Shown: positions 46,023 through 53,824 of the stretch, piece after piece | Position numbering within the stretch: the stretch's first letter is position 1 | Layout: every line of letters starts with the position of its first letter | Assembly: GCF_029227855.1 (NCBI RefSeq) | Contig: NZ_CP074356.1 | Length of the DNA stretch: 64,000 bases | Strand: one strand, 5' to 3' | From: Escherichia coli | Lineage (GTDB): Bacteria > Pseudomonadota > Gammaproteobacteria > Enterobacterales > Enterobacteriaceae | Notes under the pieces: model-generated | The model's database searches: none | What the model saw: the letters and a program-made list of their open reading frames with translations, nothing else | What the model was told of the DNA's origin: nothing | Program-made: the position numbers and the translations under genes

Positions 46023-46345
46023 AGAGCATTAGTTCAGATGTGAATTGACATTTTCGTGGCACAAGATTAGCGCTAGCGTGGTCGTTTGGTTTGTGCCAAG
46101 AGCGGATAATGCTGACATTCCTATGCACTAATTAACGCAGAGCAAGCCAGTTAGTTGGTTATGGAAGTAAGTTGTAGCCAGCAACTATCACCATCGGAGA
46201 TATTTAGGGGGATGCACTCTAAGTTGTAGTTACTTTATAATGTCACTTTCAAAGCGGAAGCTTGTACAAAAGATGGATAAGCTTTTGTATAGTATGGGAT
46301 TCAAGAATCACTAAAAGATGACAACAGTACTTACAGGATGTGGCT

Positions 46346-46585
46346 ATGATCCGAATTATGATTAGAATATTTTCTTTGACATTCGTTGCTTGCGCTGGCT
46401 TTGCTGCATATCACTTCAATAGTGTGCCATTGATGTTCACTTCTGGTAGCTTTCTTGTAACATTTTTAGGTACATTTATTGTTAATAAAAAAAGTTCAGG
46501 GCATACAATAATTCAAAAAAGCGGTAGCCATTCAAAAAATAATCATACGGTCGTTTTTGGAAATAATGAAAACAAGCGAGGCTGA
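46346..46585 (+). CDS. small two-TM membrane peptide (79 aa), first gene of the AT-rich cassette
   Basis: ATG at 46346 with AGGA upstream; MIRIMIRIFSLTFVACAGFAAYHF...LMFTSGSFLVTFLGTFIV then polar tail; stop is 2 nt before the next start. Confidence 0.5.
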   Translation: MIRIMIRIFSLTFVACAGFAAYHFNSVPLMFTSGSFLVTFLGTFIVNKKSSGHTIIQKSGSHSKNNHTVVFGNNENKRG

Positions 46586-46587
46586 TC

Positions 46588-47184
46588 ATGGTTGGTGTTA
46601 CTCAAAGGTCAGGGAATTACTCACGTAATGTGCAGGTGGTTGTCGATTCTAACTCTGTTGATATTATAAAGTCTCCATCGATTTTTATGGATCTTGTTGG
46701 TATTTTAGTTGATTCGAATGTTATTGATCCTCGTACAAACAATGACTACGAGCCATATGATATTGAGAATAAAATAGACTTCAATGATGTTATAAAACAT
46801 AGAGAACGTATTGAAGGGTTCTATCTATATTCTTCGATGATAGATAAAGCGTATGAAACATTAAATGAAAGTATGCCTACTGCTAAGGAAACGGCACTGA
46901 AAAGCATCAATTCACGATATCTTGATTGTCAAGGAGATTTATTGCTTAAACATAGAGAAGCGTATAAGAGCTGCAAGGATGCTCAGGAACGGAATAATTT
47001 AAAGATTCAATTGGTAAGAGAGTTTGCAGATTGGATAATAGACAGTGTAATAGAGCACATCATTAAGAAATGCTTAAATTCTCTTATGGCAATGAATTAC
47101 ACAAGCGAAGAAATCGAATGCCATGCTTCTTTTATCGTTTATCATGCATTCGTAGAGTGTAAGATTCTGGAAAAACCAATATGA
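46588..47184 (+). CDS. hypothetical protein (198 aa), second gene of the AT-rich cassette
   Basis: ATG 46588 with GAGG SD; stop overlaps the next start (ATGA); no motif I recognise. Confidence 0.65.
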   Translation: MVGVTQRSGNYSRNVQVVVDSNSVDIIKSPSIFMDLVGILVDSNVIDPRTNNDYEPYDIENKIDFNDVIKHRERIEGFYLYSSMIDKAYETLNESMPTAKETALKSINSRYLDCQGDLLLKHREAYKSCKDAQERNNLKIQLVREFADWIIDSVIEHIIKKCLNSLMAMNYTSEEIECHASFIVYHAFVECKILEKPI

Positions 47185-47417
47185 TTATCTCTGATGTAAC
47201 AAAACCAAGCCAAACCTTGTATTACCTGGGAGCTCGGTTATTAGAATGCATGAGTTCAAATGCTTATTCGTATGTTGATATTATAGACTTGTATAATGAA
47301 TTCAAATCTAAAAATAACAACTCTTCATTCACGCAATATATTTACACTTTAAATTGGCTATATTTATTAGGCCTGGTTGATGCTAACGAAAATGGAGATT
47401 TGATATTATGTTTTTGA
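47181..47417 (+). CDS. hypothetical small protein (78 aa), third gene of the AT-rich cassette
   Basis: ATG 47181 overlapping the upstream stop; 3' end overlaps the ATPase start by 10 nt. Confidence 0.6.
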   Translation: MIISDVTKPSQTLYYLGARLLECMSSNAYSYVDIIDLYNEFKSKNNNSSFTQYIYTLNWLYLLGLVDANENGDLILCF

Positions 47418-49132
47418 AACGGCTAATAGTCAGTTCTTTCAGGCTTGGAGTGATTCGTGATATCGAATTTCACATTGGCGTTAATTTGATTATTGACCGA
47501 AACACCTCCAGCAAAGAGCAAACTGGAAATGGTGTGGGAAAAACTACTGTATTAAGAGCTTTAGATTTTTGTTTTGGAGCAGAACAACTGAATTTTTATA
47601 CCGATCCTGAATTCAAGAAAGAAAATTCGGTTATAAAAAATTATTTGATAGAGAACGAGATTGAGTTTTGTTTAATTCTCACAAAAGATTTGAATAATAA
47701 AACTGCACCAGTAATAAAAATTAAGCGTAAAATTACATCTGAGACTAATAAAACGAAGGTTATAGCCTCAATAAATGAAGAGTCCTATACGAAGGCTAAA
47801 GATTTCAACGAGGCTTTAAAAAGAACATTATATCTTGATTCCGCGATAAAACCGACCATACGAGAGATTATGGGACGTGTTATTCGAAATACGCATGACA
47901 AGATGTCGAACGCATTAAAAACGATAAAAATGGGTTCTAATACACAATATGAAACGTTAAATCTGTTTATGTTTGGGTTCGGTAACTCACAGATTCTGGA
48001 TGAAAAACAGTCAGTGACTAAAGCCTATAAACTGGCGAAATCCGATTATGAAGTAATTACTCGCCATCGCTCAAAGAATGCTTTGGAACAAGCTATTGCA
48101 ATTATAAATAGAGATATTATAGCACAAGAAGAGTTAATTTCTAATTTTCAAGTGGCAGACTCTTATAATGATATGCTTGCTGAGTTAAATGAGTTAAAAA
48201 TTAAAATTAGTGAAGTTTCTATCACACTATCATCTTTGGAGTTTAAGCAAAAATTAAACGATAAGGCTATACTAGATCTGGAAAAAAGTCATGAAAATAT
48301 AAATACACTAGATCTACAGAAGTTGTACTTAGAAGCAACTGATCGGTTAGGTAACTTAAACAAAGAGTTTACTGAGCTACTTTCGTTTCATAATAAAATG
48401 CTTGTAAAAAAAGCTGAGTTTATTAGAAAACAAATGCAGCCAGTGCTGCAAGAAATTTCCAAATATAAAGATGAACTAAATAATTTATTGACTCAAGAAT
48501 CAGAGCTTTTAAAGAGTTTGTCTTCGCATGGGACATTGGCAGACCTGCAAATAATGCAAAAAAAATTAAATTCATTATTTGAAGAAAAAGGTGGGCTTGA
48601 AGCTGGACTACTTCAAATCCAAGAGATGGAGAACAACTTTAATATACTGAAAGCAAAGTTTAATGATGTGTCAGATAGATTAAAATCTAAACTTGACGAT
48701 TTTAACAAACGTCTTGCGCTATTCAATTCCTATTTTTCTTTATATACTAAAAAATTATATCAGGATGAATATATTCTTTCCTATAAAGATTCCTCCGGTT
48801 CTTTCGTTTTTACCATTGAACCTTTAGGAACTTTGCTCACATCAGGTAATCAGGGAGAAGGAAAAAAGAAAGCCCAGGTTGCCTCTTTAGATTTTGCCTA
48901 TTTATCTGTCCAGGAGTCTTTAGAAGCCAGAACACCACGTTTTATAGCTCATGATGGAATTGAGGCAATTCATGTAAATCAAATAAATAAGTTATTCGAG
49001 ATAGCTTCGGGGATTAATGGTCAATATATATTGGCTATTCTTAAAGACAAGTTGGAGAATATTGATCAAGACTTCATCAATAATAGTGTTGTGCTTGAGC
49101 TTGGGGAGGACGATAAGTTTTTTAGGCTTTAA
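47408..49132 (+). CDS. SMC/Rad50/ABC-type coiled-coil ATPase (574 aa), fourth gene of the AT-rich cassette
   Basis: N-terminal P-loop TGNGVGKTTVLRALDFCFG (RecF/SMC-type Walker A); ~300-aa heptad-rich central region; C-terminal TSGNQGEG (signature-like) followed by RFIAHDGIEAIH (Walker-B/D-loop-like); GGAG SD. Confidence 0.8.
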   Translation: MFLKRLIVSSFRLGVIRDIEFHIGVNLIIDRNTSSKEQTGNGVGKTTVLRALDFCFGAEQLNFYTDPEFKKENSVIKNYLIENEIEFCLILTKDLNNKTAPVIKIKRKITSETNKTKVIASINEESYTKAKDFNEALKRTLYLDSAIKPTIREIMGRVIRNTHDKMSNALKTIKMGSNTQYETLNLFMFGFGNSQILDEKQSVTKAYKLAKSDYEVITRHRSKNALEQAIAIINRDIIAQEELISNFQVADSYNDMLAELNELKIKISEVSITLSSLEFKQKLNDKAILDLEKSHENINTLDLQKLYLEATDRLGNLNKEFTELLSFHNKMLVKKAEFIRKQMQPVLQEISKYKDELNNLLTQESELLKSLSSHGTLADLQIMQKKLNSLFEEKGGLEAGLLQIQEMENNFNILKAKFNDVSDRLKSKLDDFNKRLALFNSYFSLYTKKLYQDEYILSYKDSSGSFVFTIEPLGTLLTSGNQGEGKKKAQVASLDFAYLSVQESLEARTPRFIAHDGIEAIHVNQINKLFEIASGINGQYILAILKDKLENIDQDFINNSVVLELGEDDKFFRL

Positions 49133-49366: not shown

Positions 49367-49577
49367 TTTCATATTGGCGAGATAACGGGAGTTAAGTAGA
49401 ATGCCTGCGGGTGCTTGAGGCTATCTGCCTCGGGCATGAACACCAACGGCAGATAGAGAAAAGCCCCAGTTAACATTACGCGTCCTGCAAGACGCTTAAC
49501 ATTAATCTGAGGCCAATTTCATGCTAGACACATGTAGGTTAGCCTCTTACGTGCCGAAAGGCAAGGAGAAGCAGGCT

Positions 49578-49733
49578 ATGAAGCAGCAAAAGGCGATGTT
49601 AATCGCCCTGATCGTCATCTGTTTAACCGTCATAGTGACGGCACTGGTAACGAGGAAAGACCTCTGCGAGGTACGAATCCGAACCGGCCAGACGGAGGTC
49701 GCTGTCTTCACAGCTTACGAACCTGAGGAGTAA
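49578..49733 (+). CDS. hokD: Hok/Gef-family membrane toxin HokD (51 aa)
   Basis: ATG 49578 preceded by AAGGAGAAG; MKQQKAMLIALIVICLTVIVTALVTRKDLCEVRIRTGQTEVAVFTAYEPEE; ORF track shows an in-frame upstream extension from 49521. Confidence 0.86.
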   Translation: MKQQKAMLIALIVICLTVIVTALVTRKDLCEVRIRTGQTEVAVFTAYEPEE

Positions 49734-52147: not shown

Positions 52148-52672
52148 TTATTGTTTAACCCATAATAATTCATTGACATTGAATCCCAACTTTTGAGCGG
52201 TTCGCACATAGTCTGCTTTTACTTTATCTGGAATAGTTGGGGTCCTTGCCAGAATCCATAGGTATTCTCTGTTCGAACCACTAACAAGAGCATACTTATA
52301 CTCATCATCCAGTTTGATTACATTATAGCCACCATAGAAGGGGCCAAAAAACGAAACCTTCAACGCTGCAGTTTTAGTATCTCCAGTAAAGTATGCTTTA
52401 CCTTCGCTCTCGCTCCATTTATTTTTCGTTGGATCGTATCCACGGTTAAGTACACGAATCCCTCCGTCGTTCCGTTTTCCATAAGTAGCGCTGACCTGTT
52501 CCAGACCACGTTCGAACCGGTTCTCGAGGCGAGCTATTTCATACCATTTTCCGAGGTAGCGGTTGGCGTCAAAATTTGTAATCGGCTGCACACCTTTAGG
52601 TGGTGTCGGGGCCTTACATGCTATAAGAGTGAAAGAGAGTGCAATGCCAGTCAACACAGGCCATAACTTCAT
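52148..52672 (-). CDS. outer-membrane lipocalin Blc homologue (about 174 aa), prophage cargo
   Basis: ORF 52148..52678 (-); ATG at 52670-52672 with AGGA SD; lipobox LIAC; lipocalin motifs NFDANRYLGKWYEIARL, YNVIKLDDEYKYALVSG; AT-rich. Confidence 0.85.
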   Translation of the reverse strand: MKLWPVLTGIALSFTLIACKAPTPPKGVQPITNFDANRYLGKWYEIARLENRFERGLEQVSATYGKRNDGGIRVLNRGYDPTKNKWSESEGKAYFTGDTKTAALKVSFFGPFYGGYNVIKLDDEYKYALVSGSNREYLWILARTPTIPDKVKADYVRTAQKLGFNVNELLWVKQ

Positions 52673-52864
52673 AATCAATCCTGTACTTTTGATAGTTGAG
52701 AGTAAGTATGAAAGATAGATGATTACGACCGATCACTTAAAGAACTTTCATACTATATTAGGAATAGTCCATAACAGAAAAATTGTCAGTGATGACGTCA
52801 GAAAGGCAATTTATTCCGTGCACTACACAGTTTATGTGTTAATGAATTAGTCAAGGGGGAGGAT

Positions 52865-53824
52865 ATGATAAAAAAACCTGTGATTGGAATCAGCGGTTGT
52901 TTGGCCGGTTCTGCTGTTCGTTTTGATGGTGGTCACAAAAGAGCTGACTTTTTAATGGACAAATTAGTGGAATGGGTAACATTCAGACCAGTATGTCCGG
53001 AAATGGCTATAGGGCTGCCAGTTCCGCGTCCTGCTCTACGTCTTGTGCGCTCGAAGCAAGGAAATATACGGATGTGTTTCAGCCACGACCAGAATGAGGA
53101 TGTGACAGAGAGAATGACAGAGTTTAGTCGTTCTTATATGCACAAATTAAAGGATGTATCGGGGTTTGTGGTTTGTGCTAAATCTCCCAGCTGTGGCATG
53201 GAGCGCGTGCGTGTCTATGATGAAAATGGTAATCGAGGTCGTAAAGATGGAGTGGGACTATTTACGAGCACTTTGATGGAAAAGTTTTCCTGGCTACCGG
53301 TTGAAGAGGATGGGCGATTACATGATCCAGTGCTTCGTGAGAATTTTGTTGAAAGAGTTTTTGCTTTGCATGAGCTCAATCACCTTTACAAGGAGAAATT
53401 ATCAAGAAGAGAGTTATTAGCTTTTCATAGTCGTTATAAGCTTCAGTTGTTGGCGCATAGTCAGGCAGGCTATAAAGATATGGGACCATTTGTGGCTGCA
53501 ATACACGAGTGGGCGGACCTTGAATCATACTTTGAGGTGTATCGTGATAAGCTGATGGCGATTCTCAGAAAACCTGCATCACGTAAAAATCACACGAATG
53601 TGCTGATGCATATACAGGGGTATTTTAGTAATTACTTAAGTACACGCCAGCGTAAAGAGTTGACCGAGGTTATACTTAACTATCGCTTTGGCACATTGCC
53701 TCTTCTTGCGCCGTTGACTCTGCTGAAGCATTATCTGGGTGAGTATCCTAATGATTACTTGCTTACACAGAATTACTTCGATCCCTATCCGGAAGAACTG
53801 GCTCTAAGACTGATGGTGAATTAA
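52865..53824 (+). CDS. two-domain DUF523 (TudS-like Fe-S thio-nucleobase desulfidase) plus DUF1722 protein, RudS-like (319 aa)
   Basis: ORF track 319 aa; GGGGGAGG SD; N-terminal GISGCLAGSAVRFDGGHK with further Cys at FRPVCPEM and VVCAKSPSCGM (three-Cys Fe-S pattern); C-terminal half YbgA-like. Confidence 0.75.
   Translation: MIKKPVIGISGCLAGSAVRFDGGHKRADFLMDKLVEWVTFRPVCPEMAIGLPVPRPALRLVRSKQGNIRMCFSHDQNEDVTERMTEFSRSYMHKLKDVSGFVVCAKSPSCGMERVRVYDENGNRGRKDGVGLFTSTLMEKFSWLPVEEDGRLHDPVLRENFVERVFALHELNHLYKEKLSRRELLAFHSRYKLQLLAHSQAGYKDMGPFVAAIHEWADLESYFEVYRDKLMAILRKPASRKNHTNVLMHIQGYFSNYLSTRQRKELTEVILNYRFGTLPLLAPLTLLKHYLGEYPNDYLLTQNYFDPYPEELALRLMVN

Follow-up and report, generated by a model that had tools for sequence, protein, structure and literature searches.

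A predicted Walker B motif without its catalytic glutamate in the ATPase of a Lamassu-type prophage module of Escherichia coli

The last gene of a short operon in an Escherichia coli prophage encodes an SMC/Rad50-like ATPase in which the sequence FIAHDG stands where ATPases of this kind normally carry an aspartate followed by a catalytic glutamate. The initial annotation of the locus, which lies in a 64,000-nucleotide window of contig NZ_CP074356.1, picked out this motif by eye and suggested that the protein may bind ATP but hydrolyse it slowly, as would suit a sensor or switch. The locus raises the questions of whether FIAHDG is the true Walker B, whether the loss is peculiar to this protein, and what such a nucleotide site would do in a defence module.

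Results and discussion

A Lamassu-type module in a Qin-like prophage

The reading frame at 47408..49132 is intact (coordinates verified by translation) and its product is, on sequence matches, an SMC/Rad50-like ATPase belonging to a Lamassu-type (ABC-3C) module of four genes. The module is a low-GC insert within a Qin-like lambdoid prophage and encodes, in order, a two-transmembrane (2-TM) peptide, a CTD10 protein, an MC6 protein and the DUF2326/YydD-family ATPase as its last gene (Table 1). Each of CTD10, MC6 and DUF2326 exceeds its Pfam cutoff. Their genes follow the type II order LmuA-LmuC-LmuB on a single strand and overlap, the MC6 gene sharing a few bases with each neighbour. RefSeq names agree with the Pfam calls for the composition of the module, with the CTD10 product labelled ‘ABC-three component system protein’, the MC6 product ‘ABC-three component system middle component 6’ and the 2-TM product ‘hypothetical protein’. 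The CTD10/MC6/DUF2326 triad was also found in six other loci (L001, L003 and L012–L015). A search of the phage genome collection with the 2.9-kb module returned nothing. PADLOC places the ATPase under the candidate system PDC-M68 only (PDC-M68B, E 1.3e-41), its LmuB models matching marginally (E 6e-4), and a literature search found no ATPase, ATP-binding or defence experiments on DUF2326/MC6/CTD10 systems.

Across the 198 residues of the LmuA-like protein, Pfam shows no enzymatic effector domain ahead of the CTD10, unlike in the LmuA of type II Lamassu; CTD10 proteins of other loci bear an N-terminal HNH or SMEK_N. For the 2-TM product, Pfam returned nothing significant and PADLOC and NCBIfam returned nothing; its two transmembrane helices are predicted by eye from two hydrophobic stretches. 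Equivalent open-reading frames sit directly 5′ of a CTD10-only gene in Dickeya (L001) and Serratia (L012), and a motif in the C-terminal tail of the 2-TM protein, QKSGSHSKNN, is found again at the N-terminus of the CTD10 protein. The 2-TM protein may be a detached effector of the module. A programmed frameshift fusing the 2-TM and CTD10 frames was ruled out, the frame offset being unlike in E. coli and Dickeya.

Table 1 Features of the module and of its ATPase, in window coordinates
Feature	Coordinates	Strand	Details
2-TM small protein	46340..46585	+	81 aa from GTG 46340; 79 aa from ATG 46346 (RefSeq start)
LmuA-like CTD10-only protein	46588..47184	+	198 aa; PF20275 CTD10, E 1.6e-10, 42.1 bits (cutoff 28.1), residues 36-195
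LmuC-like middle component MC6	47181..47417	+	78 aa; PF20293 MC6, E 1.6e-13, 50.8 bits (cutoff 27.2)
DUF2326/YydD-family (LmuB-like) SMC/Rad50-like ABC ATPase	47408..49132	+	574 aa; Pfam, PADLOC, AlphaFold, Foldseek
Walker A (P-loop) GNGVGKTT	47525..47548	+	residues 40-47
Q-loop-equivalent stretch PTIREIMGRVIR	47852..47887	+	residues 149-160; R160 on Q-loop glutamine of LmuB
Signature-motif region TSGNQGEGKKK	48839..48871	+	residues 478-488; TSGNQGEG = 478-485
Predicted Walker B strand FIAHD + G517	48941..48958	+	FIAHDG, residues 512-517; model strand 512-516
D-loop-equivalent segment EAIHVNQ	48962..48982	+	residues 519-525; E519 three residues past Walker B Asp
Strand QYILAIL then KDK	49022..49051	+	residues 539-548; model strand 539-545; expected H-loop place

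Fold and family of the ATPase

The C-terminal part of the ATPase matches PF10088 DUF2326 (residues 447-573, E 4e-14, 52.9 bits against a gathering cutoff of 28.7), and some sources call its relatives ‘YydD (DUF2326 family)’. An AlphaFold model (pLDDT 85.8) shows the topology of an ABC head into which a coiled coil is inserted, the N-terminal head half covering residues ~1-193, the long helices of the coiled coil ~194-451 and the C-terminal head half ~452-574. The best Foldseek match in the PDB was the YydD model 9a6c_A (E 3e-22), five Lamassu LmuB structures matched at E about 4e-15 to 7e-11 and SMC and Rad50 heads came next, with a probability of 1.00 for SMC, Rad50, RecN, MukB and JetC heads. 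The protein has no zinc-hook CxxC, C55 and C88 being its only cysteines; in published short LmuB proteins CxxC copies number zero, one or two, and the hook is not obligatory.

Sequence searches of PDB chains were run with four queries (full protein, N-terminal head, full-length family profile, C-terminal profile) and gave coiled-coil or chance matches only. YydD 9a6c did not come up in any sequence or profile search of the PDB, and LmuB was reached solely by hmmsearch with a head-only profile of diverged members. An hhalign comparison of the C-terminal profile with a single E. coli SbcC sequence gave no match. Short fragments were all that a 59-aa piece of LmuB retrieved from a database; full LmuB genes were obtained by tblastn on plasmids.

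FIAHD is the predicted Walker B

FIAHDG lies within TPRFIAHDGIEAIH (residues 509-522 of the ATPase) and is followed by I518 and then EAIHVNQ. In the AlphaFold model its strand sits between a helix (484-504) and a unit of helix 523-535 and strand 539-545. The distance from the end of TSGNQGEG, put at about 25 residues by the initial annotation, is 27 (G485 to F512). With hhalign we aligned the family head profile to five DUF3732 LmuB heads (Prob 95.3, E 2.3e-8, 266 columns). Four LmuB elements find a counterpart here in that alignment: Walker A, the stretch PxFR...Q-loop, the signature G-S-G and the D-Q of Walker B. It places D516 on the Walker B Asp (posterior ~0.9) and G517 on the LmuB Gln. 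The hmmsearch match to the Salmonella LmuB chain 9hqu_A agrees with this in its collinear pieces and in the pairing of D516 and G517. The assignment made by eye is thus borne out by the model topology and by both LmuB profile alignments, on which FIAHD is the true Walker B of the ATPase and is without a catalytic glutamate.

The missing glutamate is a family trait

Conservation was assessed across 143 representatives of 50%-identity clusters of ATPase relatives. D516 is D in 141 of them and F512 is F in 142, whilst position 517 is occupied by K (66), Q (25), R (20), S (15), G (10), E (3), N (2), H (1) or D (1). Walker A and D516 are fixed across the family and position 517 is free; the initial claim that no catalytic glutamate follows the Walker B aspartate holds both for this ATPase and for all but three relatives. 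In the family alignment, the missing glutamate is a trait of DUF2326 as a whole, the position drifting among K, Q, R, S and G. The residue directly before the aspartate, H in this ATPase and H or N in the family, is polar, which is unusual. Two residues beyond G517, the glutamate E519 is kept by 141 of the 143 relatives, including the three with E at 517.

Other motifs of the nucleotide site

Walker A is canonical: G44 and K45 occur in all 143 relatives, T46 is T in 136 and S in 7, T47 is T in 139 and S in 4, and the motif aligns to LmuB TGKS, the published K40 included. By alignment, the Q-loop is not. No conserved Gln occurs at 158-165 among the 143 relatives, in which R160 is invariant (143/143; P149, 138/143), and R160 pairs with the Q of LmuB FxFQPQ. 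The hhalign match sets KPtFRQLI..iR against rPSFRDLmaFsFQ of LmuB (posterior ~0.7 at R160) and the 9hqu_A pairing agrees, so that an invariant arginine appears to take the place of the Q-loop glutamine in DUF2326 ATPases.

TSGNQGEG had been read as signature-like. It does start the helix before Walker B, but SGNQ probably resembles LSGGQ by coincidence; hhalign instead puts the G-S-G of LmuB on G483-E484-G485. N481 and G483 (or S) are conserved in the family, G485 is present in 142 of 143, position 484 is T in 56 and S in 46 (S/T 71%) with E in this ATPase, and the TLLTS stretch is an insertion missing from most relatives. We considered whether E484 might supply a glutamate in trans for G517; this is unsupported, since diverged relatives with G517 have E, S, T, D or H at 484.

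In the D-loop-equivalent segment H522 varies (H83/D35/S13), N524 is kept in 114 relatives and Q525 in 123. At the expected place of the H-loop, Q539 is invariant (143/143), L545 is L in 123 and I in 19, position 546 is K in 50, R in 42 and H in 5, D547 occurs in 111 and K548 in 117, and no histidine is conserved at 545-548 among the 143 relatives in a register set by spacing and model secondary structure; hhalign of the segment after the D-loop, run for this register, was not significant. The counterparts are QVIVLDH in LmuB, QVMCVTH in RecN, TIGVISH in SbcC and QLIIAAP in MukB. MukB is an active ATPase, so the H-loop gap taken alone says little.

Comparison with known systems

The closest described systems are those of type II LmuB/DdmC (DUF3732; 9hqu, 9hqx, 9uxh, 9nyg), which likewise have a short SMC/Rad50-like ATPase as the last gene of an effector-CTD/middle/ATPase operon, likewise lack the Walker B catalytic glutamate, and match the ATPase here in fold and head profile. 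They differ in the C-terminal head (DUF3732 rather than DUF2326), in the partners (MC3/CTD7 rather than MC6/CTD10), in the residue after the Walker B Asp (Q, as against G here and K/Q/R/S/G in the family), in the Q-loop position (Gln, as against R160) and in the histidine after the last head strand, which LmuB keeps (LDH) and the DUF2326 family does not. The best structural match, Bacillus subtilis YydD (an integrative YydD-YydB model, TM 0.58), belongs to the same Pfam family but shares only 15% sequence identity with the ATPase in the structural alignment and is paired in 9a6c with YydB; the literature search found no functional study of YydD.

Rad50/SbcC, the proposed ancestor of Lamassu (as Rad50/SbcCD), likewise has a head split by a coiled coil and carries Walker A, Q-loop, signature, Walker B and the last head strand in the same succession, with ~31 residues between signature and Walker B in SbcC against ~32 here. 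Unlike those of our ATPase, the SbcC motifs are canonical (LSGGE, LFLDE, Q-loop SQGQ, H-loop ISH), the coiled coil of SbcC is far longer, and a zinc hook joins Rad50-family proteins in pairs. A residue other than glutamate after the Walker B Asp is also found in E. coli RecF (LYLIDD) and long-Lamassu LmuB (hhhhDD), and degenerate ABC-transporter sites, CFTR NBD1 among them, hold on to ATP stably but are poor at hydrolysing it. All of these keep an acidic or small polar residue, whereas the DUF2326 position is unconstrained and often Lys or Arg. E. coli MukB, also SMC-like, resembles our ATPase in lacking the H-loop His (QLIIAAPEN, as against QYILAILKDK) but has a canonical Walker B (LFLDE) and serves a chromosome-organising complex rather than a defence module.

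A deviant Walker B is already published for Lamassu LmuB, in the form hhhhD[Q/S/T/E] in short and hhhhDD in long Lamassu, and the idea of a slow switch, which fits the family, is not new. In LmuB the Walker B E is replaced by Q and the protein is described as an ‘active if inefficient’ ATPase with slow ATP hydrolysis, mutants of the Walker A lysine lose both ATPase activity and defence, and the proposed activation step is release of the effector and its oligomerisation via the CTD. One Lamassu study reports a ‘moderate rate’ of ATPase activity despite the deviant Walker B (10.1101/2025.06.23.660979), so loss of the glutamate is no guarantee of slow hydrolysis.

A proposed latch rather than a motor

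We consider it likely that the ATPase is the sensor of a Lamassu-type prophage module and that, with its glutamate-less Walker B, it works as an ATP-gated latch and not as a motor. Because Walker A and the Walker B aspartate are strictly conserved, the protein is predicted still to bind Mg-ATP, and by analogy with LmuB it would hydrolyse it slowly. On this model, ATP binding would drive head engagement of the dimer once phage DNA structures are sensed, hydrolysis would be slow or dispensable, making the complex a latch, and head engagement would release the CTD10 protein from the coiled coil, where it would sit with MC6. The toxic output in this subtype may be the separate 2-TM peptide rather than a nuclease.

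Other accounts of the motif fare worse to different degrees. Misassignment of the Walker B, with a canonical D-E at some other place in the C-terminal head, is effectively refuted. Such a pair was sought and not found; the only adjacent acidic residues elsewhere in this part of the protein are D453-E454, which precedes the first head strand and is variable at 454, and E567-D568-D569, which follows the last. Neither can be the Walker B, because in the model both fall outside the interval that starts with the signature helix and ends at the next unit of helix and strand, and both LmuB profile alignments put the motif at 512-516. A protein that has given up nucleotide binding altogether and is a mere coiled-coil scaffold for MC6 and CTD10 might be suspected from its four non-canonical positions, R160 (Q-loop), E484 (signature), G517 and L545 (H-loop), as placed by alignment or spacing. 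We regard this as very improbable, since a Walker A G-x-x-x-G-K-T-T and a Walker B aspartate that are almost invariant over clusters of ≤50% identity are hard to explain if no nucleotide is bound, and Walker A lysine mutants of LmuB are non-functional.

It is less far-fetched, though still unlikely, that hydrolysis is normal and relies on a relocated catalytic residue, E519, possibly aided by R160, in a motif that is rearranged and not degenerate. The near-invariance of E519 and the invariance of R160 beside an unconstrained 517 suggest a role at the nucleotide site, and LmuB proteins with D-Q hydrolyse ATP measurably. However, in E. coli RecN (FDEVD) the equally spaced residue is also acidic although a normal catalytic glutamate is present, so E519 may be an ordinary residue of the D-loop region, and its retention in the three relatives with E517 likewise speaks against a substitute role.

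Beyond the preferred reading of a sensor that latches on ATP, we put forward more tentatively, and with more doubt than belief, that the DUF2326 site has been rebuilt and not merely altered by one E-to-Q exchange, with a free 517 that is often Lys or Arg, an arginine for the Q-loop Gln, no conserved switch His and a near-invariant E519, for ATP-gated latching with no hydrolysis or for non-canonical catalysis, and that the 2-TM peptide aids an LmuA that carries no effector. If so, the 2-TM partner would explain the apparent effector loss in a published short-Lamassu clade whose effector domain is lost (PMC12663957).

Taken alone, the missing glutamate repeats what has been published for the family, and the gene had been annotated before. 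Current models in which Lamassu is a one-way switch gated by ATP do, however, centre on the glutamate-less LmuB, and the trait reaches a diverged DUF2326 clade in E. coli prophages, where it appears to go further. What ‘effector-less’ Lamassu uses as its toxic output is a question to which the conserved 2-TM gene suggests an answer that can be tested. If the additional changes around the site hold structurally, the DUF2326 clade would be a natural place to ask whether sensors of the Lamassu type require ATP hydrolysis at all.

Identity of the Walker B motif

In the ATPase, an LmuB-like protein of the DUF2326/YydD family, the initial annotation noted a Walker B-like FIAHDG without the catalytic glutamate, and this is confirmed by topology, fold, alignment to the Lamassu ATPase LmuB and conservation, which agree that FIAHD(G) is the true Walker B. 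Translating exact coordinates places TSGNQGEG at residues 478-485 and TPRFIAHDGIEAIH at residues 509-522. In an AlphaFold model (96 homologues as input, mean pLDDT 85.8), a coiled coil (~194-451) parts the C-terminal half from the N-terminal half with GNGVGKTT, and the C-terminal head has the order expected of ABC heads: two strands (454-473), the signature-like loop, helix 484-504, strand 512-516 (FIAHD), a short turn, helix 523-535, strand 539-545 and terminal strands. Searched against the PDB with Foldseek, the model matched a B. subtilis YydD model (9a6c_A, E 3e-22) and Lamassu LmuB chains (9uxh_F, 9hqx, 9hqu, 9ux7 and 9nyg, E 4e-15 to 7e-11), with SMC, cohesin, condensin, Smc5/6, Rad50, RecN, MukB and JetC heads next.

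A profile built from the heads of 23 diverged family members matched Salmonella LmuB (9hqu_A) over four collinear segments, including vGKTt with TGKS (published K40) and rFilhDkiE with SFLILDQPS. When the family head profile was aligned by hhalign to that of five full LmuB genes from plasmid CTD7/MC3/DUF3732 operons (probability 95.3%, E 2.3e-8, 266 columns), the Walker B aspartate of LmuB was paired with D516 (posterior ~0.9) and the LmuB glutamine with G517. Among 143 representatives of 50%-identity clusters, F512 and D516 hardly vary. No canonical DE takes the Walker B place elsewhere in the C-terminal head; D453-E454 and E567-D569 lie outside the segment from signature to last strand and are not conserved as pairs. 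Residue 515, just before the aspartate (window 48941-48955), is polar in the family (H71, N48, Y9 and Q8 of 143), whereas it is hydrophobic in SbcC, RecN, MukB, RecF and LmuB.

Loss of the catalytic glutamate across the family

Lack of the glutamate is characteristic of the family. Close relatives have Q (61) or G (50) after D516, and the wider family has K66, Q25, R20, S15, G10, E3, N2, H1 and D1; as this normally fixed catalytic position varies freely, selection does not maintain a catalytic side chain at 517. Across six loci examined, the Walker B variant follows system subtype: HDG occurs with a CTD10-only protein and a two-transmembrane (2-TM) gene, [HQ]DQ, plus one LDE, with HNH, and NDKK with SMEK.

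[quoted passage not shown] The missing glutamate is a published hallmark of its ATPases, and the module genes are already annotated accordingly. Walker B reads hhhhD[Q/S/T/E] in short and hhhhDD in long Lamassu (PMC12663957), and a 2023 review and the DdmABC paper report the same deviation; Gly, Lys or Arg after the aspartate falls outside this consensus, yet follows the same theme. The Salmonella complex has no ATPase activity alone and turns over ~1 ATP/min with DNA (10.1101/2025.03.14.643221), and another Lamassu study found a moderate rate abolished by Walker A mutation (10.1101/2025.06.23.660979). The earlier suggestion that the protein may bind ATP but hydrolyse it poorly, suiting a switch, is thus the prevailing published view for its closest characterised relatives, and by analogy may apply here.

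Other departures from the canonical nucleotide site are read from alignment or spacing rather than structure. R160, invariant (143/143), aligns with the Q-loop glutamine of LmuB (PTIREIMGRVIR with RPSFRDLMAFSFQ, at identical spacing from a common P-x-F/I-R motif). For the signature, G-S-G of LmuB lies on G483-x-G485; the middle residue, 484, is S/T in 71% of the family and E in the query. The query family has strand Q539-YILAIL followed by K/R-D-K; E. coli SbcC, RecN and LmuB carry a histidine six residues past the equivalent Q/T, whereas the query has L545, and the family alignment contains no conserved histidine near it (register inferred from spacing; hhalign gave no significant alignment of the ATPase tail). 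E. coli MukB also lacks this histidine (QLIIAAPEN), which calls for caution on the H-loop reading. E519 is nearly invariant and lies three residues past the Walker B aspartate. Since RecN (FDEVD) combines an acidic residue at that offset with a normal glutamate, E519 may simply belong to the D-loop region, and a relocated catalytic base is the less likely reading.

Module composition and genomic setting

The ATPase gene is the last of four open-reading frames, tightly packed or overlapping on one strand. The C-terminal 130 residues of its product match Pfam DUF2326 (E 4e-14), and the protein matches the PADLOC candidate-system protein PDC-M68B (E 1.3e-41), with only marginal matches to LmuB and AriA models; RefSeq naming agrees with the MC6 and CTD10 assignments. 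At 560 aa, the NCBI-derived cluster representative P0001 (352 member sequences) implies a start at V15, 14 codons downstream (window 47408-47452). The start at 47408 is the better call, because conservation of the N-terminal M-F-L-K-x-L strand reaches 90% or more across the family; the RefSeq annotation of strain 19A14 also uses it.

Open-reading frames of the module and nearby cargo genes
Feature	Position	Strand	Description
2-TM ORF	46340..46585	+	81 aa, two hydrophobic helices
CTD10 protein	46588..47184	+	198 aa
MC6 protein	47181..47417	+	78 aa
ATPase	47408..49132	+	fourth, last ORF of module; intact, 574 aa
hokD-type ORF	49521..49733		type I toxin; just downstream of module
Lipocalin-family gene	52148..52678	-	beyond Q antiterminator
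YbgA-family gene	52865..53824		beyond Q antiterminator

GC content is 35-38% across the module block vs ~50% around it. The module lies inside a lambdoid prophage, with replication-region genes on one side and hokD, rem, ydfU and the Q antiterminator on the other; in E. coli 19A14, dicB, ydfA and essD border an identical stretch, which marks the prophage as Qin-like. Other cargo lies nearby (window 49521-49733 and 52148-53824; RefSeq names from the identical region). The module is present in only 16 of 5,426 complete E. coli genomes, and none was found in the phage records of a phage genome collection. Dickeya, Serratia, Flavobacterium and three metagenomic loci also have the CTD10/MC6/DUF2326 triad; its CTD10 protein there either has an N-terminal-type effector domain (HNH or SMEK_N) or, in Enterobacterales, is CTD10-only. 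In Dickeya (L001, 4772-5010), gene calling splits MC6 into a 57-aa and a 25-aa piece, pointing to a disrupted middle component in that copy. In Serratia (L012, 1-8707), a P2-like prophage carries a CTD10-only/MC6/DUF2326 module (ATPase 51% identical, Walker B FVAHDG), with the portal and terminase genes to one side and the gpA replication gene to the other; the module is therefore a cargo cassette shifting between unrelated temperate-phage backbones.

A candidate effector and proposed mechanism

HNH and SMEK are listed as short Lamassu effector types (PMC12663957). The CTD10 protein of the query subtype has no enzymatic domain; the obvious candidate for the effector is the 2-TM peptide conserved upstream. 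Its ORF precedes the CTD10-only gene in E. coli (window 46340-46660), Dickeya (L001, 3941-4300) and Serratia (L012, 2415-2740). In all three, the 2-TM C-terminal tail and the CTD10 N-terminus share a QK(G/S)G..S.N motif (E. coli IIQKSGSHSKNNHTVV and VTQRSGNYSRNVQVVV, Serratia VTQKGGSHSTNTQNV and ISQKGGYRSTNTQNI, Dickeya KQKGGAFSKNNQNV and SQKGGFGSHNTQIV), a pattern suggestive of a 2TM-CTD10 effector that has been split, leaving its junction duplicated, or of a pairing handle. The query locus may belong to the published 'effector-less' short-Lamassu clade, and the 2-TM peptide may be that clade's missing effector.

The ATPase is homologous to LmuB, with Walker A and the Walker B aspartate intact and the catalytic glutamate absent. 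By analogy with Lamassu structures, its dimer would hold MC6 and the CTD10 protein on a short coiled coil; detection of phage DNA ends or of replication intermediates, with ATP-driven head engagement, would release the CTD10 protein, which could then oligomerise and switch on a toxic output, slow or absent hydrolysis making this a one-way latch. Of more interest are two leads: a nucleotide site that seems more extensively rewired in the DUF2326 clade, and the separately encoded 2-TM partner as candidate effector.
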